A stretch of DNA of 64,000 nt from a virus. Every line of letters starts with the position of its first letter. Position 1 is the stretch's first letter. Positions 1,723 to 46,593 of this stretch are shown one piece after another. Location of the stretch: the UHGV virus genome UHGV-0026213. One strand, 5' to 3'. Both the position numbers and the translations under genes were made by a program. A model generated the notes under the pieces. That model ran no database searches. It saw only the letters and a program-made list of their open reading frames with translations, and had not been told where the DNA came from.

Positions 1723-3498
1723 GTGTTTAAAGATGCAATCAAAAAGCTTAAAGAGAGTGGTAAAATAGTACCCTTTAACCGTGCGATTGCGGAAGGAGTC
1801 GGTTATACACAAGCCAAAGATGGTATTCACGATCGTGTACATCGTATCTTGAAACGTGAGCTAGATTACCATCCTGTAGAGAACCCTCGTGTTCCTGAAG
1901 GCTTGGCCGTGTTGGGTGTTCGTTTAATGTCGCCGTTCGAAACTTTTATCTATAAGCTGTCTCGTTCAGAGAGCAGCAGGATGGATAAGCGTCGTGGTGT
2001 GATGTCTATCGCGAATACCGATGCGTATATGGTCATGTCGTCGTTCCGTATTCCTGGAGACTCAAGACCAATCTCAAGACCGATTAACTTGCCTTTCATT
2101 CGTCGTGGTGGGTTGATGAACTATTACGGAACAACGTATCATGTTGCACCTGTTATTCATCAGCCGGGTATCTGTCGTGAGCACGGTGGGGTGTTTGTTA
2201 ATTTTGACTTTAAACGTAAAGCGTCATTAAAATTCTGTAAGCATCCGGTACGGATTTTAGTGAACGGGAAGAAAGAAGAATTGTTCTTGCCCGGAACAAA
2301 CAATTTGTTTAAAGCCAAAAACGCCACACATCCTGACACGGACGAAAAGCCGTTAATGTACTGGCTATTCGGACGTTATGGATTTAAGGAAGCCATCAAA
2401 CGTTATACTGGCGTGGATGTGGAGATATATCCTGCATTCAAAGTACCTGAAATCGATCTCGATAAAAAAGTAGTAATCAGTTCAGGTGAGCCTAAACATA
2501 ATCGGTCGATTATGTACGTAGTGACGGTTCCTGCAGAGGCTTTACCAAATCTCGATAAAGCGGGATGGGATCAAAACGAGCACTTATTACTCGTGGCGAT
2601 TTCTGCATTCTTTAAAGCAGCGCACTATTATTGCGGAAAGCAAGCGATTAAAAACGGCAACGTTGTTCCTTTACCGCCGTTGTTTACCGCGATTAACGAA
2701 CTTGCAATGGAGGACGATGTTGTAAACCTGAATTCCTCCGCAATTTGGCGGGAGATTTTGGGGAGAAGTATTGTTGGACTTAAACCGTCCGATATTGAAC
2801 TGGCACACAGCATGACGAAACACTATACGGAGTGTGAACGCTACGTTAACTCAACATTCCGTGGTGAGTTAATGATGTCAGATCCCGATATCCCGGACGA
2901 TATGGATATGTTTGATTTCTTCTGGTACGCGACGAAGTTGATGGTGAGAACACGCCTTACGAAACAAGGTGATATTCCGTCAATGTATGGAAAACGTCTG
3001 ACCGTAACAGATTACCTGTTATTGGGTGAGCGTGGCTTTACGCCTACCATCGCTGCGATTCGTTTCCACTTGGGACAAACGGAAAATCGAACACCGGAGT
3101 CTTGTGCGAACATGATACGCAGTGCGTTGAATAAAGACATTGTAACCAGCCTGGTATTACGCAACATTACCGGTAATGGTGGTGTAAGTTATTTCAACGC
3201 TTCTACCGAGTCTATGGTACTGGGGGTTTCAACCCATGCTATCAGCCAGACAGAAACAGAATCAAAACGTAACAGCAAAGGCGGTAAGACGGTTAACCTT
3301 AATGACCGGACAAAACATGCCTCTGCATCTCATCTGGAATGTGGTAACGTGTATTACATTCCGAAATCATCACCGTTCAAATCGGGTATTCTCAATCCGT
3401 ATATGAAGACGAACACCCAACTGGTGATGGTACGTAATCCAAAACTCAACGAGTTGATCCAAGCAACCGAAGAAGACATTGCGAAGATTGGCCGTTAA
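1723..3498 (+). CDS. hypothetical protein (591 aa)
   Basis: Long ORF; GTG start 6 nt after AAGGAG (1711-1716); no recognisable motif. Confidence 0.7.
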   Translation: MFKDAIKKLKESGKIVPFNRAIAEGVGYTQAKDGIHDRVHRILKRELDYHPVENPRVPEGLAVLGVRLMSPFETFIYKLSRSESSRMDKRRGVMSIANTDAYMVMSSFRIPGDSRPISRPINLPFIRRGGLMNYYGTTYHVAPVIHQPGICREHGGVFVNFDFKRKASLKFCKHPVRILVNGKKEELFLPGTNNLFKAKNATHPDTDEKPLMYWLFGRYGFKEAIKRYTGVDVEIYPAFKVPEIDLDKKVVISSGEPKHNRSIMYVVTVPAEALPNLDKAGWDQNEHLLLVAISAFFKAAHYYCGKQAIKNGNVVPLPPLFTAINELAMEDDVVNLNSSAIWREILGRSIVGLKPSDIELAHSMTKHYTECERYVNSTFRGELMMSDPDIPDDMDMFDFFWYATKLMVRTRLTKQGDIPSMYGKRLTVTDYLLLGERGFTPTIAAIRFHLGQTENRTPESCANMIRSALNKDIVTSLVLRNITGNGGVSYFNASTESMVLGVSTHAISQTETESKRNSKGGKTVNLNDRTKHASASHLECGNVYYIPKSSPFKSGILNPYMKTNTQLVMVRNPKLNELIQATEEDIAKIGR

Positions 3499-16244: not shown

Positions 16245-16258
16245 TAACATCACCGATA

Positions 16259-16300
16259 GGAGAGAACCCTGAAAAGGTTCTCTCCTGCTTTCTTTTTTTT
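16259..16300 (+). terminator. rho-independent terminator
   Basis: GGAGAGAACC-CTGAAAA-GGTTCTCTCC hairpin followed by TGCTTTCTTTTTTTT. Confidence 0.85.
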
Positions 16301-16330: not shown

Positions 16331-16879
16331 ATGTATAAAATTGCTATTATTGGTTCTCGAGAAACGCCCGAAGACACGATGCAAGAAATGTTGGATGTGT
16401 TGCAACGTGGGTTCAAAATTCTTCGTAATAAACAGCACAGTATCGAAACGCGGTCAGGCGGTTGTTACAAAGGACCAGACCAATTACAGTTTATGTTAGC
16501 ACGTACTGAACCAGGACCACATATTTGTTATTTGCCTGACGAACGTAAGTTGTGGTTACGTAAGTTACATCCGAATGTGGATTTTCGCGTTATTCCACAA
16601 GACGTCCGTTATCGTGGGATTGTGGCATCGCTTCACCCTAATCCTGATAAGCTATCGGAAATAGCTTGGGTGTTGCATGGACGAAACTTAAATATTGTAT
16701 CAGGTGATTCTTTGGACGATCATGTAGACGCCGTCTATTATTACGCTGAGCATGATAAAAAGGGAAATCCAAAAGGGGGTACGGCGATGGGTGTCCGCTA
16801 CGCACAGTCACTGAACATCCCTTGTTATTATCATGTTACGGATGCATCTAAGTGGTTAGAAGACCTACGCTTATTATGA
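16331..16879 (+). CDS. DprA/Smf-like (SLOG Rossmann-fold) protein
   Basis: IAIIGSR near the N-terminus, RSGGCYKGPD (like SGGAxGxD) and a C-terminal GGTAMGV motif resemble DprA-type DNA-processing proteins. Confidence 0.45.
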   Translation: MYKIAIIGSRETPEDTMQEMLDVLQRGFKILRNKQHSIETRSGGCYKGPDQLQFMLARTEPGPHICYLPDERKLWLRKLHPNVDFRVIPQDVRYRGIVASLHPNPDKLSEIAWVLHGRNLNIVSGDSLDDHVDAVYYYAEHDKKGNPKGGTAMGVRYAQSLNIPCYYHVTDASKWLEDLRLL

Positions 16880-16929
16880 AGTTAGTCAGGGCGGGCTTCT
16901 CCCCGCTTTAGCTTAAAATGGGGTAAAGG

Positions 16930-18063
16930 ATGTCAACATTAGATTCCGATTTAGAAGTCCTTTGCGATGACTACGATCGTTTGGTCGCGTTAGAATCGCT
17001 TAATGTTAAAGACAATTATCCGGCGGTTGTCGCTATCCGAAAACGGTGGGCTTTAGATGATGTCCACGTTGCGTTGGAGTCTGCAGCGATGATGGAACGC
17101 GCGCAATTTGTTGCGGACACCGAGCCTTACGCAGGGGTAGGTAAAGCGGTCGCACGCGCGACCGGCAGAGCGGTTAAGGGAGTTGGACGCGTTGCTGGAA
17201 AAGCAGCAGTGGCAGGAGCCAAAGCGTCTGGAAAATTCGCAGGTAAACATTCTAAGCAATTGGCCTTACGTTTTATCGACTTCGCGGAAGCCGCCGGTAA
17301 AGAAGTTATTAATGAACTGAAAGAAGCGACGTCCAAAGCATCGTCGTTAGAACGCAAGCTACAGAAGTTAGAAGCACGTTTAAGTTTACTTGGTATCAAG
17401 GACACCTTAAAACCGGTTGACTGTGACACAGGAAGTTGGACAACAAAAGTTTGTTTAGAAGACAAGCCTAACGTAAAAGCATGTATTGAGTTCAGTAAGA
17501 ACCTGAGCGCAATGGATGCGATGGTCAACGAGTATACTGTTAAAACACGTACGTTAATCGGTAAGAGCAAGAAAGTTACCGAGAGCGGTTTGGAGAAAGT
17601 GGGCCGGTCAACGAACTGGGCGATTAAACGAAGCGCAGGACTGTTCGGTATTATCGATCCGTTTAAAACGGTGAAAGCATATCCGTGGCCAGGTAACGTG
17701 GTGGTCGTTGAACACAACAACGGTAAGATTGAGTGGGCGATTGCTCGCGACGGTGATTTTGGCCACACAATCAAATCTCTGAACTTGCACGAAATCGGTT
17801 CAGCACTCGACGCCGTTAGAAACATTATCCGAGCGTTACGTCAGCGTGGTGCGAAACGACGTAGTGTAGGGTATACAGGAATTTATGACGAAATTCAGCG
17901 TATGCGTAAGGAACTTAAGTCGCTTGAAGGGCGGGAGTTACGCGACGCTACCGTACGTTATAAAAACGCACTGCGTTTAGAAGATGCGTTTACTACCTCG
18001 TTAGTGCGCGTTGCGGAAGGGTTACTGGAGTGGTGCAGGTTGTCACTGATTGAGGTTAAATAA
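16930..18063 (+). CDS. hypothetical protein (377 aa)
   Basis: ORF with GGGGTAAAGG-ATG context; Ala/Lys/Gly-rich segment then coiled-coil-like region. Confidence 0.6.
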   Translation: MSTLDSDLEVLCDDYDRLVALESLNVKDNYPAVVAIRKRWALDDVHVALESAAMMERAQFVADTEPYAGVGKAVARATGRAVKGVGRVAGKAAVAGAKASGKFAGKHSKQLALRFIDFAEAAGKEVINELKEATSKASSLERKLQKLEARLSLLGIKDTLKPVDCDTGSWTTKVCLEDKPNVKACIEFSKNLSAMDAMVNEYTVKTRTLIGKSKKVTESGLEKVGRSTNWAIKRSAGLFGIIDPFKTVKAYPWPGNVVVVEHNNGKIEWAIARDGDFGHTIKSLNLHEIGSALDAVRNIIRALRQRGAKRRSVGYTGIYDEIQRMRKELKSLEGRELRDATVRYKNALRLEDAFTTSLVRVAEGLLEWCRLSLIEVK

Positions 18064-18530
18064 TGCGTATCACTATTATTCTCAAACCCGACAGTAAATA
18101 CGGAAAGTTATACGGCGACCAGGTACTCAAACTGCACAACATGTTGTTCGCAGAAGAGAAAGTGCGTATTAGTCAGTTAACCGGACGCGACACGTTCAAC
18201 CCCATCGAACACTTAGAAGAGATCTGGCCTCAAGATTATCTCTGTGCGTGTGCGGTGGATGATAACGAACAACTTTTGGGATTTATGACCTTTTCAATAG
18301 GTTCTTGCCAGAAGGACACGTTTGTTTATATTGGGAACTACTATGTGATTCCTGAAGCACGTTCTCAAGGGGTAGGCCGTGCGCTTATGGACAAAGTTCG
18401 TGAATACGGAAAGTCCAAAGGTTGTGGTTGGATGAGTTTGGATGTGCTGGACAACAACGTTAAAGCTATCTCCTTGTATGAGAAAATGGGATTCCGTACC
18501 GAATGCAGGGAAATGATAAAGGAAATCTAA
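18063..18530 (+). CDS. GNAT-family N-acetyltransferase
   Basis: YVIPEARSQGVGRALMDKV is a GNAT motif A (R-x-x-G-x-G); size 155 aa is typical. Confidence 0.6.
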   Translation: MRITIILKPDSKYGKLYGDQVLKLHNMLFAEEKVRISQLTGRDTFNPIEHLEEIWPQDYLCACAVDDNEQLLGFMTFSIGSCQKDTFVYIGNYYVIPEARSQGVGRALMDKVREYGKSKGCGWMSLDVLDNNVKAISLYEKMGFRTECREMIKEI

Positions 18531-18531
18531 A

Positions 18532-19164
18532 ATGGCTGCAAGATTAGTACCGTTTCACGACGGGTCTAGATATACTTTTGGTGTAGAGCGTTACGCTGTG
18601 GGTTTTCGTCCTGGTTGGAGAGTGGTACGAATCGATAAGGCGTGTTGGTATTTGCCGACGGGCATTTTTGATTACTTTACACCTGAAGCTTTAACGCGGT
18701 TTGTTTCTCTGGGTTCTCCCACGCAACGTGCTGCGTGGGAAAAGAATATCCGTTGTCGATATTTAGGCAAAACAAGAAACGCCACAGTACGGGCAGTTTA
18801 TCATGTTGGGAGTCGTTGGTTACACGTCGAACCAACACGTCCACGATGTGCAGTGACGCCCTTTAATGGGGAGTACAAAGGTCAGGTATACACAGGGTTG
18901 CATTTTGCTTTTCCAGACAACCCCGATCTTAATTACTTCTTAGCCACCCCGAAAAACGTTACGTTAGCTACGTTCTATAAATACCTTTTGTTCTATCCTG
19001 CGTATGTCGTTGCAGAATTTGAACACAAAGCATTTCCTCTGCCATACGGTAGAGATAGGAGATTAGCAGGATGTTCTATCGAGAACTTCAGCAATACACC
19101 GACGCTCTCCGAAAAGCGACCATCGATGCGGACAACAACCTCAGAGATGTCGTTAGCACTATAG
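18532..19164 (+). CDS. hypothetical protein
   Basis: 210-aa ORF; its 3' end overlaps the next ORF by 94 nt. Confidence 0.5.
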   Translation: MAARLVPFHDGSRYTFGVERYAVGFRPGWRVVRIDKACWYLPTGIFDYFTPEALTRFVSLGSPTQRAAWEKNIRCRYLGKTRNATVRAVYHVGSRWLHVEPTRPRCAVTPFNGEYKGQVYTGLHFAFPDNPDLNYFLATPKNVTLATFYKYLLFYPAYVVAEFEHKAFPLPYGRDRRLAGCSIENFSNTPTLSEKRPSMRTTTSEMSLAL

Positions 19165-19442
19165 AACAGTGTTCGGATGTATTGTATGCGGAAACGATTG
19201 AATCACCAACTCACGACGGTGTGAAATCGCTCCAGCTACACGTTTGTAGTAAACACGGTAGTCTGTCGTTAAACTTCCGTGTAGGTTTAGATTATTACAT
19301 GGTTCGTAAGAGCTATTTAAGTTGCGACGGCGACCTCTATCCGGTTGTCTGGAACAACGACTATTCTAAGTTTGTTTATCCGCTTGAAGAACACCGACGC
19401 ACGGTTTATGAATTTGTGAAAGCTGTTCTTGAGGGGTTCTAA
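19071..19442 (+). CDS. hypothetical protein
   Basis: 123-aa ORF, ATG preceded by AGGAG at suitable spacing; overlaps the upstream gene's 3' end. Confidence 0.4.
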   Translation: MFYRELQQYTDALRKATIDADNNLRDVVSTIEQCSDVLYAETIESPTHDGVKSLQLHVCSKHGSLSLNFRVGLDYYMVRKSYLSCDGDLYPVVWNNDYSKFVYPLEEHRRTVYEFVKAVLEGF

Positions 19443-19456
19443 GAGAGGGCCTTGTA

Positions 19457-20062
19457 ATGTCAGAGATGATTCTCGATTCATTACTATTGATTACAGTATC
19501 GTATATCAACAAAACAGGCAAGTTGCCTAAGCGTGGCGTTACTATCGAACGTGACGGGTTTAAACACCGCTATCCCTTAACGAAAATTTTGGATTTAGCT
19601 GCACGTTTAGCCAAGATGCGTCGTCCGAATAGCGAAGCGGCACCGAAATACGTTTTACTGGTTTTACAACGCGCGATTTCTGAGGTGCGTCGTAAACGCC
19701 GCCGTGCCGCGTTTCGATTTTATCCCAATTCGACGCAACAAGTGGTGGGGGAATACAACGATATGGTTGTCGATCTTCGTGCAGGCCGGAGTAATGTAAC
19801 TGGGTTGGCGTATAACCGCCTTAAACGCATTCTGGACGACAGTGATGCCTTAACCACACCACAAGAGGGTCAAGCAGCTTTAACGCTTCTACGAGGCGCT
19901 GAGCTCGTTATTGTGGACACCGCTGTGCAAGCAGCAAGAATGCAACACTATCTTGCTAAACAAGGGTTAGTCTTGCTGTGCGTAACGTCTGCACAGGCTG
20001 CTAACCTCACCGCACCACAAACGTCAGAAGTGTGGAGTGATCCGATTGTTGATCACCAATAA
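19457..20062 (+). CDS. hypothetical protein
   Basis: 201-aa ORF; terminator follows. Confidence 0.55.
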   Translation: MSEMILDSLLLITVSYINKTGKLPKRGVTIERDGFKHRYPLTKILDLAARLAKMRRPNSEAAPKYVLLVLQRAISEVRRKRRRAAFRFYPNSTQQVVGEYNDMVVDLRAGRSNVTGLAYNRLKRILDDSDALTTPQEGQAALTLLRGAELVIVDTAVQAARMQHYLAKQGLVLLCVTSAQAANLTAPQTSEVWSDPIVDHQ

Positions 20063-20069
20063 AACCTTA

Positions 20070-20105
20070 CCCCTACTTAACGGTAGGGGCGGGTTTCTTT
20101 TTTTA
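20070..20105 (+). terminator. rho-independent terminator
   Basis: CCCCTAC-TTAACG-GTAGGGG hairpin followed by CGGGTTTCTTTTTTTATT. Confidence 0.8.
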
Positions 20106-20177: not shown

Positions 20178-20801
20178 ATGCTTAAGACAGTGTCTATTGA
20201 TGGTCCTGATTTTTCTGGGAAATCAACGTTGTGTAAAATGGTAAAAGCGATGTTGGAGTCCGCAGGATTAAAAGTGTGTATTCGGAACCATCCGACGTCT
20301 GAGACCGAGGCGGGCATTCGTGCACGTAGCTTGGTTGTACAGTCTGCTTCGAAAACAAAAATTGCTGAAGCAATGTGTGATGACTTCCTTCACACGTTAG
20401 ACCATGTTGTTGACGAGTACGATGTCGTCATTTTCGATCGTTTTTGCCCTTCAACGATTGTTTATCAGGGGACAGATGGCAAGGACGTAGTTTTCCAACG
20501 TAAGCTAACTCGTCATTTCCACGCACCCGACCTTTATGTTTGGACTGATGTTGATTACCCAACAGCGTTAGCGCGATTTAAGAAACGTGTAGAAGAACAA
20601 GGTAAGAATTGGGACGATGAGGTACTTACGGTTAAGTATCTAATGGACAATCATTGTTGGGATGGCCTACGCGACCATTATCGTTTCGCGCATCATATCT
20701 TAACAGAAGGCGGTTGCCTTCACGTTCTATTACCGGTAACGCAGAATGACGATTACCGTTTGAAAGCCGCAGAGATTGTTACGCACATTTTAGCAAACTA
20801 A
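20178..20801 (+). CDS. thymidylate kinase-like (d)NMP kinase
   Basis: P-loop IDGPDFSGKSTL near the N-terminus and DRF...TIVYQG resembling the thymidylate kinase DRY/YQ region. Confidence 0.55.
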   Translation: MLKTVSIDGPDFSGKSTLCKMVKAMLESAGLKVCIRNHPTSETEAGIRARSLVVQSASKTKIAEAMCDDFLHTLDHVVDEYDVVIFDRFCPSTIVYQGTDGKDVVFQRKLTRHFHAPDLYVWTDVDYPTALARFKKRVEEQGKNWDDEVLTVKYLMDNHCWDGLRDHYRFAHHILTEGGCLHVLLPVTQNDDYRLKAAEIVTHILAN

Positions 20802-20808
20802 CCGCTTA

Positions 20809-20846
20809 GGTACCACCGTTGGGTGGTACCTATATTTTATTTTTTC
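20809..20846 (+). terminator. rho-independent terminator
   Basis: GGTACCACC-GTT-GGGTGGTACC hairpin followed by TATATTTTATTTTTT. Confidence 0.85.
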
Positions 20847-22069: not shown

Positions 22070-23068
22070 ATGGCTTTTAGGAAGACTATAGAACGTACCG
22101 CCACGGATTTAACAGTAGGTCGGTTAGCACGTAGAGATATTCGCAACCCTCAACTTCAGGCTTGTTTATCGGGTCCTAACGGTGCTGTGATTCGTGAGGC
22201 GTTGTGCAATAGCGAGCTGAATACGTTCTCTTTACAAAAAGGAAAAACGATCCAAGGGTTTATCATCACAAAACACATTTACGGCGACCCAACGTTACAC
22301 TGCTTGTATATGCATGAAATTGTACCGGGCTGTTTGAACAAACTGAACCTACTACTGGTACTCGACTATACCGGCTTTACGTATCTTAATCGAATCGCCA
22401 GTGGCGTAGAAGAGATCGCTGAGCTTAATGACTTAGGATTTAGACACACCCACACTACGTATCGTTTAGGTACACGCTCGTTATTGGATATCGCTCTACC
22501 AACAAACGTGAAGAACATTTCCGGCGATTTTTATAAAGAGCTAACCACTGCACAACGTGAACAGCTTATGTTGCTTTTGGGTACGAGTGTCGTTGAAAAC
22601 ATCAACGCTGACCCTGTGAGTCGCTCACGTCAAATCATGCCACAAGTCGAAACGTTGGTGGAGTTAGTACGTCATGTCAACCACCACACCTACGTTTGGA
22701 TGGACGGCAACGATGTTGTGGGCGCGGTGCAAGTTAAATTGCGTAATCTTAACGAATGTGAATTAAAAGCCATTGCGGTAAGTGAGACACATCGGGGTCG
22801 TGGTATCGGACGGACTTTATTGTATCGTGCTCTACAAATTGCATCGACAACAGCGGCACCATTAGAGATAGGGTGTTTCAATAACAACCCTGCATTCAGG
22901 CACCTGGCCGTCGAATTATTTAAATTTCGCCCCTACGAATACGAATTTGTTTTAGTGCGTGACGAAAACGTCGTCAGTTGGGAGCGTCAGAAAAATCATG
23001 TCAAATTGGTGTTAGTCGACGAAGTGTCATCGTTACAAGGCGGATATAATGCGGAAACCGATAATTAA
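22070..23068 (+). CDS. protein with C-terminal GNAT acetyltransferase domain
   Basis: 332 aa; C-terminal LKAIAVSETHRGRGIGRTLLYRAL is a GNAT motif A. Confidence 0.5.
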   Translation: MAFRKTIERTATDLTVGRLARRDIRNPQLQACLSGPNGAVIREALCNSELNTFSLQKGKTIQGFIITKHIYGDPTLHCLYMHEIVPGCLNKLNLLLVLDYTGFTYLNRIASGVEEIAELNDLGFRHTHTTYRLGTRSLLDIALPTNVKNISGDFYKELTTAQREQLMLLLGTSVVENINADPVSRSRQIMPQVETLVELVRHVNHHTYVWMDGNDVVGAVQVKLRNLNECELKAIAVSETHRGRGIGRTLLYRALQIASTTAAPLEIGCFNNNPAFRHLAVELFKFRPYEYEFVLVRDENVVSWERQKNHVKLVLVDEVSSLQGGYNAETDN

Positions 23069-23864
23069 ATGGATGGGTGGGAAAACGCGCGTTTTGGGTG
23101 AATTACAAAAGGTCTTACCTAAACGTACAACCTTTGTAGAACCGTTTGTGGGCGCAGGGTCTGTTTTCCTAAATACGAATTACAGCCGGTATATTCTATC
23201 GGATTCTAACCCCGATTTGATACGCTTACTTTGTGTTGCGCGTGAACAGCCTGAAGAACTGATCGCTGCATCGCAACCGTTGTTCTTAGACGGCAATACC
23301 ACTGTAAAGTATATGGAACGTCGTGAACTGTTTAATAGCGGTAAAACGATGACCGAAGTTGAACGTGCTGCAATGTTTTTATACTTAATGCGTCACGGTT
23401 ATAACGGGATGTGTCGTTATAACAGTAGTGGTGGGTTCAATGTTCCGTTTGGACGTTACCCGAACGGCGTTTATTATCCATTAGAAGAAATTCGGGATTG
23501 GGCTAAACGTTGCGCAGAAGTTGAGTATCTGGAAATTGTTTGTGAGGACTTTCGTTCTGTATTAGCACGGACACCTGAAGATGCCGTGATTTATGCTGAT
23601 CCTCCTTATATTCCGTTATCGGATACCGCGAAACACGCGCAATATCACCGTAAAGAATTCTCACAAACGGACCATCGCGAATTAGCCAAGTTACTACAGC
23701 AGCAGGTGGAACGTGGCAACAGTGTCGTGCTGTCAAATGCGGACACCCTACTCACCCGCGAAATTTATTACGGTTTTGAGTGGCGTAGTATTGAGGTCGG
23801 TCGCTATATGGGTGCGTCTGGTGCCGCTCGGAAAACGGTGACTGAATTACTGGGAGTGCTCTAA
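23049..23864 (+). CDS. dam: DNA adenine (N6) methyltransferase, Dam-like
   Basis: N-terminal KWMGGK, FVEPFVGAGSVF (AdoMet motif I) and catalytic DPPY (YADPPYIP); domain order typical of Dam/T4 Dam class. Confidence 0.75.
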   Translation: MRKPIIKWMGGKTRVLGELQKVLPKRTTFVEPFVGAGSVFLNTNYSRYILSDSNPDLIRLLCVAREQPEELIAASQPLFLDGNTTVKYMERRELFNSGKTMTEVERAAMFLYLMRHGYNGMCRYNSSGGFNVPFGRYPNGVYYPLEEIRDWAKRCAEVEYLEIVCEDFRSVLARTPEDAVIYADPPYIPLSDTAKHAQYHRKEFSQTDHRELAKLLQQQVERGNSVVLSNADTLLTREIYYGFEWRSIEVGRYMGASGAARKTVTELLGVL

Positions 23865-43721: not shown

Positions 43722-44108
43722 ATGCGTTTATTTTACTTAAAAAGGCGTTTGTCATTAAAAGCCCAACTGTTTGTTAACGAGAAAGTTAAAAACTGGCTGT
43801 GTGGTAAAAGGGTACAATATGTCGTTAAAGAAGGCGACTGGTATACGGAGGTTGTGACTTCCCCTAACGGTGAACTTATAAACGTTACTATTCGTGACGT
43901 TATGGTTAAGGTTGGTAGGGGAGGCGGTCTGTTATTTGGATCAGAAACTATAAGGGTCGTTGCTAAACAATTGAAAGATGGTCGAGTTATATTCAATGTT
44001 ACCGCCCAGAAATACTACGACAATTTATTCGAGTGTCAACGAGCAATAGACAGAATGACCCGTGAGATGCGAAGAATGCACATTACGGAGATCACTATAG
44101 GAGTTTAA
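43722..44108 (+). CDS. hypothetical protein, tandem paralogue B
   Basis: Adjacent duplicate of the 43353 gene with the same conserved Cys/Trp positions. Confidence 0.55.
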   Translation: MRLFYLKRRLSLKAQLFVNEKVKNWLCGKRVQYVVKEGDWYTEVVTSPNGELINVTIRDVMVKVGRGGGLLFGSETIRVVAKQLKDGRVIFNVTAQKYYDNLFECQRAIDRMTREMRRMHITEITIGV

Positions 44109-44419
44109 TGATGGAAAGTAAAATCACAAACACATCGGTACCTGAGAACATTGTCAACTATATTCTCCGTGGTGGGTTGTTAGAAGACAATAAAGAAACG
44201 TGCGATAAACTCGTTTCTCAACTACTACCTATTCGTTCAGAATACTGCGAAATCGTTATCTTAGGTTCCGAGTATTGCGTACGTTCTTACTGCCGTCGTT
44301 ACGAAGCCTTACGCGTCCCTCGTACGTTAGGTGGCGTGATCTTGCTGATTTCGTCTTTTCAAGACGCTCATGTGCGTGTGGCGACCTGGATTGCCAAAGG
44401 AGGTAACAGTGGTTTTTAA
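44108..44419 (+). CDS. hypothetical protein (103 aa)
   Basis: ORF overlapping the upstream stop; Cys-containing. Confidence 0.5.
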   Translation: MMESKITNTSVPENIVNYILRGGLLEDNKETCDKLVSQLLPIRSEYCEIVILGSEYCVRSYCRRYEALRVPRTLGGVILLISSFQDAHVRVATWIAKGGNSGF

Positions 44420-44717
44420 ATTGCTAGGTTTCGGAAAATGCAAAGCGTGCGCAAAGCACGAAGAATATATCAAGTTATTAGAAGAAACAGTTGAAACGCA
44501 GCAAGAACTTATCTCTGAATACCGTGCGAAAACCGGTTCGGTAGAATATTTGACTGTTCTCGTTTGTGCTATTGCTGAATTGGGTTGTGAGGGGAAATTG
44601 CCTAAAGAGGAGATATTAAAACTATTAAAAGAAAAAACGTCGTTTTACCGTAAAGATATTGAAGACTGTAAACGTGAGATTATAAGAGCGAATTGGGAGA
44701 TTATCAATGAAGCGTGA
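44409..44717 (+). CDS. hypothetical protein (about 103 aa)
   Basis: Track start 44370; GTG at 44409 lies 5 nt after AAAGGAGG and is preferred; contains CKAC...C motif. Confidence 0.5.
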   Translation: MVFKLLGFGKCKACAKHEEYIKLLEETVETQQELISEYRAKTGSVEYLTVLVCAIAELGCEGKLPKEEILKLLKEKTSFYRKDIEDCKREIIRANWEIINEA

Positions 44718-45416: not shown

Positions 45417-46193
45417 ATGAAAACTGTTGAGTTTAAAAATAGCAGTCTTTGGGCATACTCGCACATCATTACGAGTTTCCTGAAAAACGTTACTTCGCAC
45501 CTCGCTTATCAGTTTTGTGGAAATGAGCTCACTATCGGCGGTTTTAACGAGGAAGAATTAAAACGTGCAAAAGAGTTCATTGACGATGTTCTTCATGGCG
45601 ACGCGACGTGTTTAGTTGCGAGTTACGTTGCTAAAGACAAAGGAAGATTAAACATCATGGCAATCTTCCGGGCGCTCTCCGAAAAAGTATACGAAGTTGA
45701 GAAGGCTAGTCATGGCGTTTATATTGTTTACTTTAAACGTTCAGCGGAGAAAAACGCTGATAAACTTCTGGAGTATTTCGACTGTAACCCAGGGGAAGGT
45801 ATGGATGTCTATACGCTCGGTTATGATGGGGTACCTCACCGGAATAACCTTATTCGAGTTGACGAACCTTTTTCAGTCAATGATAACTCCACGCCTATAG
45901 AGTTGGTTCTGGTTCACAAAGATCGTTTCGCGCATTACGATTCTGATACTATTCAACGTGTCCTGAACAACGTTAATATACAGTTTTCACAAACCGAGCA
46001 CCTGGTACGTGCTTGTGTTAGGTCTAATGGCACAACATCATTTTTCCTGGAACGTCAAATCATTTGGCAGACTTATCTGGCTTTGATGGAAGAACTCGAT
46101 AGGATCGAACCAGTTCAGGTTGGTACAAATTGCTTATATTGGATAAAAACAAAGGGGTTCAAGAATGAAAACACTCAATTCAGATTTGCGTGA
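45417..46193 (+). CDS. hypothetical protein (258 aa)
   Basis: ATG after AAAGGAAAATAAAA. Confidence 0.55.
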   Translation: MKTVEFKNSSLWAYSHIITSFLKNVTSHLAYQFCGNELTIGGFNEEELKRAKEFIDDVLHGDATCLVASYVAKDKGRLNIMAIFRALSEKVYEVEKASHGVYIVYFKRSAEKNADKLLEYFDCNPGEGMDVYTLGYDGVPHRNNLIRVDEPFSVNDNSTPIELVLVHKDRFAHYDSDTIQRVLNNVNIQFSQTEHLVRACVRSNGTTSFFLERQIIWQTYLALMEELDRIEPVQVGTNCLYWIKTKGFKNENTQFRFA

Positions 46194-46593
46194 TTATATC
46201 CGTAAGTACCCGGCCAGTATTCCTGTACTGGCTTCACTTACACTTTCAGGTACTGACGTTAACATCTTAACGGTGGAACAGTTCCACGAGATAATAAAAA
46301 CCGCCTATAACTCCATTACCGCAACGTCAGTACGTAAACGTTGCGATTATCCCGATGGTCCTTTCGGTACAGAGATGTTCACAGACTACGCAGTTGCGTT
46401 TCTGTTAGGGCGACACTGCCTCGATAAGCTTAACACTGCTGTAGAAGGGGAAACAGTGACGGAAATAGTCAATGCTTGGCAGCAACGTATTCTTAATGAC
46501 CCTTACTGTCGCCAAGCGTTAAAACGAATGTCCACAACGGCGATTACAAACGACCAACGTGCTTTAGAGTTCTTTAAGCACAACTACAGCTAA
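46165..46593 (+). CDS. hypothetical protein, paralogue of the 47807-48238 gene
   Basis: Shares R.Y.R..P, TAY, YP.G..G..M and DP...L..MS.T pattern and length (about 142 aa) with the 47807 gene. Confidence 0.5.
   Translation: MKTLNSDLRDYIRKYPASIPVLASLTLSGTDVNILTVEQFHEIIKTAYNSITATSVRKRCDYPDGPFGTEMFTDYAVAFLLGRHCLDKLNTAVEGETVTEIVNAWQQRILNDPYCRQALKRMSTTAITNDQRALEFFKHNYS

Follow-up and report, generated by a model that had tools for sequence, protein, structure and literature searches.

Two consecutive genes of the viral genome UHGV-0026213, called here A and B, very probably share a genuine, clade-conserved terminal overlap, consisting of a short core that codes in both frames and a neutral, lineage-specific 3' run-on of gene A. 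The analysis covered a 64,000-nt stretch of this genome, hereafter the window. Gene A (18532..19164, plus strand, ATG to TAG) encodes 210 aa and is homologous to SPN3US gp96 (SPN3US_0096); gene B (19071..19442, plus strand, ATG to TAA) encodes 123 aa and is homologous to SPN3US gp97 (SPN3US_0097). The ORF table and the sequence agreed on 94 shared nucleotides, 19071-19164, with B in the -1/+2 frame of A and codon position 1 of B on codon position 3 of A. This 94-nt out-of-frame overlap had been reported in the preliminary description, and both ORFs were confirmed as placed. Among the mechanically listed ORFs of the window it is the longest same-strand overlap with both ends fixed, the further apparent overlaps (19-56 nt) mostly hinging on the choice of start codon.

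The B start is preceded by a Shine-Dalgarno sequence, AGGAG (19057..19061, plus strand), read from the sequence, which lies inside A codons D175-R176-R177 and is spaced 9 nt from the ATG. A TAG at 19056-19058 closes the B frame just upstream of the B start, and within B there is no further in-frame start before residue 77. The structure model of B is confident (pLDDT 93, pTM 0.87) and predicts a compact alpha-beta5-alpha domain, with helices at residues 2-15 and 25-32, a five-stranded sheet and a C-terminal helix. Because the N-terminal helix 2-15 belongs to this confidently predicted fold, the model would rule out a B start further downstream. The model of A is moderate (pLDDT 67.6), residues 174-210 scoring below 50. 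PHROG searches assigned A to phrog_9255 (E=4.4e-60, residues 3-195) and B to phrog_8535 (E=4.2e-41, residues 1-123); both families carry no functional annotation. Pfam, NCBIfam and PDB sequence searches with A and B gave no match, and a structural-neighbour search with the two models returned nothing informative. The overlap finding itself gives no clue to what either protein does.

Genes A and B belong to a densely packed plus-strand run with an internal head protein gene (16930-18063; Pfam phiKZ_IP and a PHROG match), a GNAT acetyltransferase gene (18063-18530; Pfam Acetyltransf_1 and a PHROG match), gene C downstream of B (19457..20062, 201 aa, phrog_8075) and, after gene C, a thymidylate kinase gene identified by its family match (20178-20801). 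The order internal head protein, GNAT, A, B, C, thymidylate kinase is common to SPN3US and other relatives, and gp96/gp97 of SPN3US lie downstream of head protein gp94 and acetyltransferase gp95. SPN3US proteome papers name gp94 as a head protein and make no mention of gp96/gp97, and the literature searched gave no proteomic or ribosome-profiling data for gp96/gp97.

Megablast of the window against GenBank phages detected no near-identical phage. By tblastn, A was found in 62 records and B in 53, all SPN3US-like jumbo phages with at most 51% aa identity, assigned to Seoulvirus, Machinavirus, Erskinevirus, Wellingtonvirus and Derbicusvirus and infecting Salmonella, Erwinia, Escherichia, Cronobacter and Proteus. 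The close relatives are 11 metagenomic/viral contigs of up to about 229 kb that carry A at 85-97% aa identity. With 13 cluster representatives in a set of 1.84 billion proteins, the A family is very small, and scans of viral contigs with the distant A homologues P0037 and P0042 gave no match. GenBank entries for relatives already show the overlap in their annotation but do not comment on it.

Of the 58 related loci fetched, 53 have the overlap; B is missing from three of the others, and a spacer separates A and B in the remaining two. A and B overlap in each of the 47 loci from the five genera and their relatives that carry the pair, by 40, 55, 73, 82 or 94 nt, every length being 1 mod 3, and B starts with ATG in all 47. 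GGAG or GAGG is found 5-9 nt before the B start in each of the 18 non-redundant relatives. The exact 94 nt is kept in 11 of 11 close relatives, the overlap of gp96 and gp97 is 55 nt, and among the deeper relatives it is 28 nt (L047, L048), 31 nt (L058) or 40 nt (L053, and with a GTG start of B L054 and L055). The A stop position is thus clade-specific, falling 28, 31, 40, 55, 73, 82 or 94 nt into B. Traced back from the start, the B frame is closed within 0-156 nt, and in phiEaH2 and CR5 directly ahead of the start.

These data leave very little room for an assembly or annotation artefact, that is, a frameshift error or a wrong start call, which we regard as having almost no likelihood. [quoted passage not shown] The A and B boundaries, however, are identical in 11 independently assembled contigs, and no indel separates the window from its close relatives anywhere across 18532-19442, contradicting the frameshift error that the preliminary description had considered. 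The B start is fixed by conservation, the Shine-Dalgarno sequence and structure, and the overlap is annotated in SPN3US, ChrisDB, Asesino, Wellington and others. The A extension is a real state inherited by 12 sequences that share the same open frame and stop, which also disposes of the mis-called frame suggested earlier. Homologues in which the upstream gene ends earlier had been named as a possible refutation; they do exist, with stops 28-82 nt into B, and the overlap itself stands.

The most distant loci extend the range of states. In L051 a 32-nt spacer separates A from a downstream gene that is a B homologue (hhalign probability 98%), and in L057 the spacer is 10 nt when the conserved ATG of B, not the TTG of the gene-caller, is used; the A tail is divergent in both. 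L049, L050 and L056 have no B gene, the C homologue following directly after A. No relative that has both the conserved C-terminal motif of A and a B gene was found to end A before the B start. This motif, P-Y-G-R-D-R-R-L (19042..19065, plus strand), was recognized in alignments, sits before the overlap and is probably a flexible segment according to the structure model. It varies at synonymous sites and is also kept in the B-less L049 and L056, therefore its constraint acts on protein A and not only on the ribosome-binding site of B. In the B-less A proteins P-Y-x-x-D-x-R-L is followed by a tail of about 14 residues, e.g. ATLDTFQVVESF, in line with the core length and aligning with CSIENF... 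of the window A. In a midpoint-rooted NJ tree (no outgroup) the spacer lineages were near the root and the B-less lineages were nested among overlapping ones; the direction of change among the spacer, overlap and B-less states can be inferred from such a tree only tentatively.

The existence of the overlap exceeds chance. Its length in the window is a different matter. In 4 of 73 window genes, a frame of the A type remains free of stops over 31 or more codons from the gene start, and given about 13 constrained codons, the chance of 18 more open codons is ~0.34 at the off-frame stop density of the genome, therefore the 94-nt length needs no special explanation.

The overlap is divided into two parts that evolve differently. 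In the core (19071..19101, ~31 nt, plus strand), A residues (G)CSIENFSNTP lie over B residues MFYRELQQYT. Codons 2-10 of B are nearly invariant, with third-position diversity of 0.21-0.46 vs 0.62-0.79 from codon 11. We compared synonymous codon diversity across genera in 18 non-redundant relatives, using conserved-amino-acid columns only, normalised by codon degeneracy, with five genes as the reference. The normalised value was 0.41 for the core (B codons 2-10), vs 0.95 for all other columns of the five genes (p=4e-5) and 0.75 for the first ten codons of other genes (p=0.005), while the distal overlap (B codons 11-31) gave 1.01 (p=0.5 vs other columns). The tightest sites are those where a change silent in B would alter a conserved A residue: the B F2 codon is always TTC, placing S182 in A; the L6 codon is almost always CTT, contributing to A N185 and F186; and the T10 codon is mostly ACC, its third base being the second base of the nearly invariant A P190.

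Within the clade of the window, 12 sequences (the window and the 11 close relatives) were compared. Polymorphic sites numbered 142 of 539 in the A-only region, 1 of 30 in the core, 16 of 54 in the distal overlap and 58 of 278 in the B-only region, the core density differing from A-only (Fisher p=0.002) and from B-only (p=0.015). None of the 16 possible B-synonymous changes was detected in the core, vs 42 of 176 in the B-only region (p=0.025). The sole core polymorphism, at 19077, replaces Y3 of B by H and leaves A unaltered, and A residues 180-190 are identical (11/11) in the 85% relative L038. Within the clade, the invariance of the core is matched by about 6% of all 30-nt windows, among them 18547-18614 in A, and we therefore place weight on the synonymous comparison across genera and on the rate tests. 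By these substitution patterns, the ~31 nt of the core, and that part only, are doubly constrained.

The conservation of the core could alternatively come from a nucleic-acid signal at the B start instead of A coding, leaving the overlap functionally single-coding throughout; we consider this unlikely. A hairpin, GUUCU-AUCG-AGAAC, is predicted after the AUG in the window and in many relatives. The C-terminus of A is modelled as disordered, and with pLDDT below 50 for A 174-210 the structure offers no separate argument for a role of the core residues. Some of the A invariance is forced by B residues, as for the TGT codon of A Cys181, which follows from B M1 plus F/Y2 alone. Synonymous suppression at 5' ends can also stem from selection on translation initiation, and it is somewhat visible, in a milder form, at the other gene starts (0.75 of normal). 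The core, however, is significantly more constrained than those starts, and RNAalifold with the 18 relatives predicted 0 conserved pairs. Rfam gave no match, and the single-sequence fold of the window had z=-1.7. The Derbicusvirus-like clade has no such hairpin and the Wellingtonvirus-like clade an imperfect one, and the Shine-Dalgarno sequence is not consistently sequestered across the 18 relatives (pairing P=0.88-0.94 in the clade of the window; mean 0.61 vs 0.54 background across relatives). The constrained sites extend to the T10 third base, where P190 of A is at stake, and the one tolerated core polymorphism preserves A and alters B. The B-less relatives keep a homologous A tail, beginning ATLDTF... 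where the window A has CSIENF..., which supports the core residues belonging to protein A.

S-x-E is a prohead-protease site motif in phiKZ-like phages. The S-I-E of A was considered as such a site and rejected, its E not being conserved in relatives.

Beyond the core, the run-on tail of A (19102..19164, ~60 nt, plus strand; A residues 191-210 and TAG, over B codons 11-31) behaves differently. The nonsynonymous/synonymous rate ratio in the A frame was 0.96 in the tail vs 0.11 in the body, with a higher nonsynonymous rate in the tail (p=2.5e-4), and the ratio for B on the same bases was 0.19, indicating purifying selection. Compared with L038, identity was 158/179 (88%) for A residues 1-179 and 9/20 (45%) for A residues 191-210 (p=2e-5 vs body), while B residues 11-31, encoded by the same bases as the tail, were 86% identical (18/21). 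The tail substitutions are radical (R to L, P or Q; S to L; E to V), and the extra residues by which A exceeds most orthologues are unconstrained. B-synonymous changes were not depressed in the distal overlap (13 of 43 vs 42 of 176 in B-only, p=0.43). The last 20 codons of A thus drift neutrally over a normally evolving B.

Functional dual coding of the whole 94 nt, in which the 20-residue tail TLSEKRPSMRTTTSEMSLAL would have a lineage-specific function, is distinctly improbable on these data. The stop position is the same in 12 of 12 members of the clade of the window, and the separate ChrisDB/Caitlin lineage stops at the same place with a similar ...MSLAL ending, as a functional tail would predict; the shared ending, however, follows from the conserved D-V-x-x-x-(I/L/V)-E codons of B. 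B-nonsynonymous changes were accepted in 6 of 48 cases when A-synonymous vs 2 of 89 when A was also altered, a contrast expected from the genetic code alone, because B position 1 is compared with B position 2. A tail under selection is also at odds with its near-neutral A-frame ratio, with an identity to the 85% relative far below that of the A body and of B on the same bases, with the radical replacements, and with B-synonymous sites that vary normally both within the clade and across genera. The true dual-coding segment proposed in the preliminary description therefore holds for the first ~31 nt, where both frames are conserved in five or more genera, with suppressed synonymous variation, but not for the remaining ~60 nt, where the A ratio is about 1 and the B-synonymous rate is normal. 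The check for conservation and synonymous constraint of both frames in relatives was positive for 19071-19101 only and negative for 19102-19161. The idea that the upstream C-terminal extension is read-through is retained for the last ~60 nt, as a 3' run-on without amino-acid selection.

A further possibility is programmed -1 ribosomal frameshifting that yields an A-B fusion, as in the tail-assembly chaperones G/GT. As in those pairs, the downstream ORF is in the -1 frame and overlaps the upstream 3' end, and with overlaps of 1 mod 3 this is so in every relative. A and B differ from G/GT in the lack of a slippery heptamer or stimulatory structure: there is no X XXY YYZ heptamer in the A frame at 19059-19164 and none is conserved, and downstream RNAalifold gave no conserved RNA structure. 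In all relatives B starts from a conserved ATG or GTG of its own with a Shine-Dalgarno sequence, its frame is closed upstream of the start, and it is modelled as a self-contained domain from residue 2. Distant relatives separate A and B by a spacer or lack B. We consider this fusion very improbable.

In the preferred reading, that of a real overlap with a dual-coding core and a run-on tail, B would be translated from its own conserved ATG and Shine-Dalgarno sequence, both inside the 3' end of A. In the core, the last conserved A residues (C-S-I-E-N-F-x-x-x-P) and the first ten B residues, which would form the start of the N-terminal helix of B, would share bases in different frames. Beyond it, the A frame would merely stay open to the first stop, and ribosomes presumably add the 20-residue tail to A, with no selection on its sequence. 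We infer that both proteins are made and that B initiation is independent of the A termination site. The tight packing may serve A/B co-expression in a head protein-GNAT-A-B-C operon, which we suggest more weakly.

A different reading, which we find improbable, is that the overlap is a selected regulatory device fixing the A:B ratio, with the tail as a young overprinted peptide gaining function. A-translating ribosomes crossing the B Shine-Dalgarno sequence and start, hairpin-sequestered in the clade of the window, would set the A:B ratio, and, if true, this would mean that A and B work together. Relatedly, the pair would offer a clean natural series of the birth and growth of a long co-directional overlap, from a spacer through 28, 40, 55, 73, 82 and 94 nt to the loss of B. 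Two coupling mechanisms were evaluated and rejected: the unmasking of a sequestered ribosome-binding site, as there is no conserved occluding structure (0 RNAalifold pairs and inconsistent Shine-Dalgarno pairing), and termination-reinitiation, as the A stop lies 28-94 nt downstream of the B start and is variable.

The real but fairly ordinary overlap of A and B can be placed among known systems. The longest real overlap in the survey of prokaryotic genomes was holD-rimI, 32 bp in E. coli and 56 bp in Salmonella and Yersinia (PMC2478687). Like it, A and B form a co-directional, out-of-frame terminal overlap that is conserved across genera in protein and nucleotide sequence and has a lineage-dependent length; unlike it, A and B are a phage pair, the length ranges over 28-94 nt with a maximum beyond the 60-bp limit of the survey, and the double constraint is shown for about 31 nt only. 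The orthologue pairs closest in arrangement are SPN3US gp96/gp97 and those of Erwinia, Salmonella and Cronobacter phages, with the same gene order, phase, B start and Shine-Dalgarno sequence as the window, which differs from these pairs by at most 51% aa identity and no megablast match, and from gp96/gp97 by an overlap of 94, not 55, nt.

In the model of Fonseca et al. 2013 (PMC3887535), the upstream gene is elongated at its 3' end after stop-codon loss, and the first off-frame stop then fixes how long the overlap is. The A tail agrees with this model: the first in-frame stop sets the run-on, which varies by lineage and needs no selection; the A/B core, in contrast to the model, is not neutral. 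Overlaps of 3n+1 nt such as A/B have the same phase as the overlaps of 1 and 4 nt that are common, and by our reading of the description in PMC3887535 A/B is a 'phase 2' overlap, a class usually held short. B begins with ATGT, so no ATGA stop is available.

Taken together, A and B are a documented exception to the rule on long co-directional overlaps, being real genes with an inherited overlap, yet they confirm it, since about 30 nt are doubly constrained and the remainder is a neutral run-on. The extent of dual coding should not be read off the length of a mechanical ORF overlap. The annotation of SPN3US-like jumbo phages should keep both genes; at present phiEaH2 lacks the upstream gene and the downstream gene is truncated in CR5. 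The A/B family provides a graded series of overlap states that could be useful for studies of overlap evolution.

Gene A, the upstream gene of the overlapping pair and homologous to SPN3US gp96, and gene B, homologous to gp97, are incompletely represented in some records of related phages. The homologue of A in Erwinia phage phiEaH2 is an intact 202-aa ORF (NC_019929.1, approximately 18083-18691; 2495-3103 of locus L003) that is unannotated, and the record has a 554-nt gap from the acetyltransferase to the B homologue. The B homologue of Cronobacter phage CR5 (NC_021531.1; 3031-3402 of locus L008) was annotated from an internal start at locus position 3199, as a protein of 67 aa. Starting instead from the conserved ATG at 3031 yields the complete 123-aa B protein and a 73-nt A/B overlap, the same as in its relative EarlPhillipIV. 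The TTG start (2099) called for the B homologue of the deeper relative L057 is probably wrong; the ATG at 2138 matches the family N-terminus of B.

The tblastn alignment of the window's A protein to SPN3US crosses the gp96 stop codon and reaches query residue 207 (3107-3133 of locus L001). This A-frame similarity past the stop is incidental and results from conservation of the codons of B; the SPN3US case is an example of a hitch-hiking frame that mimics conservation. Inside gene A, no 30-nt segment of the 68 nt at 18547-18614 (A residues 6-28) contains more than one polymorphic site among the 12 sequences of the window's clade, an invariance equal to that of the doubly constrained overlap core. 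Across genera, synonymous diversity in these 68 nt is normal. A recent sweep, a recombination tract or chance could account for the invariance of this stretch.

The mechanical ORF list contains other apparent same-strand overlaps in the window, at 44108-44717 (50 nt), 54262-56119 (- strand, 38 nt), 45417-46593 (29 nt) and 22070-23864 (20 nt). GTG or TTG starts may be mis-assigned in several further apparent overlaps.

Strong terminator-like hairpins with T-runs were detected at 16257-16287 and 20070-20089, on the 5' and 3' flanks of the block 16331-20062, which spans the head protein, GNAT, A, B and C genes; another is located after the thymidylate kinase gene (20807-20832). The flanking hairpins suggest that 16331-20062 is a single transcription unit. 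Most lineages have one GNAT acetyltransferase gene upstream of A; among the deeper relatives, L047 and L051 have none, L054 has two and L056 has three, and in L051 an acetyltransferase is located downstream of thymidylate kinase instead. The block is undergoing remodelling by duplication and rearrangement.

The window comes from an SPN3US-like jumbo phage. Megablast of the window against the GenBank phage collection gave no match, and the A and B proteins have at most 51% amino-acid identity to those of GenBank phages. Metagenomes and IMG/VR hold near-identical contigs (L016-L019 and L033-L039; for instance, QZLY01000003.1, CYGL01000001.1 and IMGVR_UViG_3300029126_000001) of up to ~229 kb, mostly 220-229 kb. 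The window phage is probably an undescribed genus-level lineage. The source of the protein cluster closest to B is given as Shigella sonnei and that of a partial match as Enterobacter quasiroggenkampii assemblies, and these labels suggest an enterobacterial host.

At 19032-19063, structure prediction pairs the AGGAG Shine-Dalgarno motif of B with a UUUCCU located upstream within gene A, with a pairing probability of 0.88-0.94 in the window and its 85% relative. Conservation of this pairing does not extend to other genera, and the predicted fold is not significant (z=-1.7). If the predicted pairing is true, initiation of B would depend on the ribosomes translating A.
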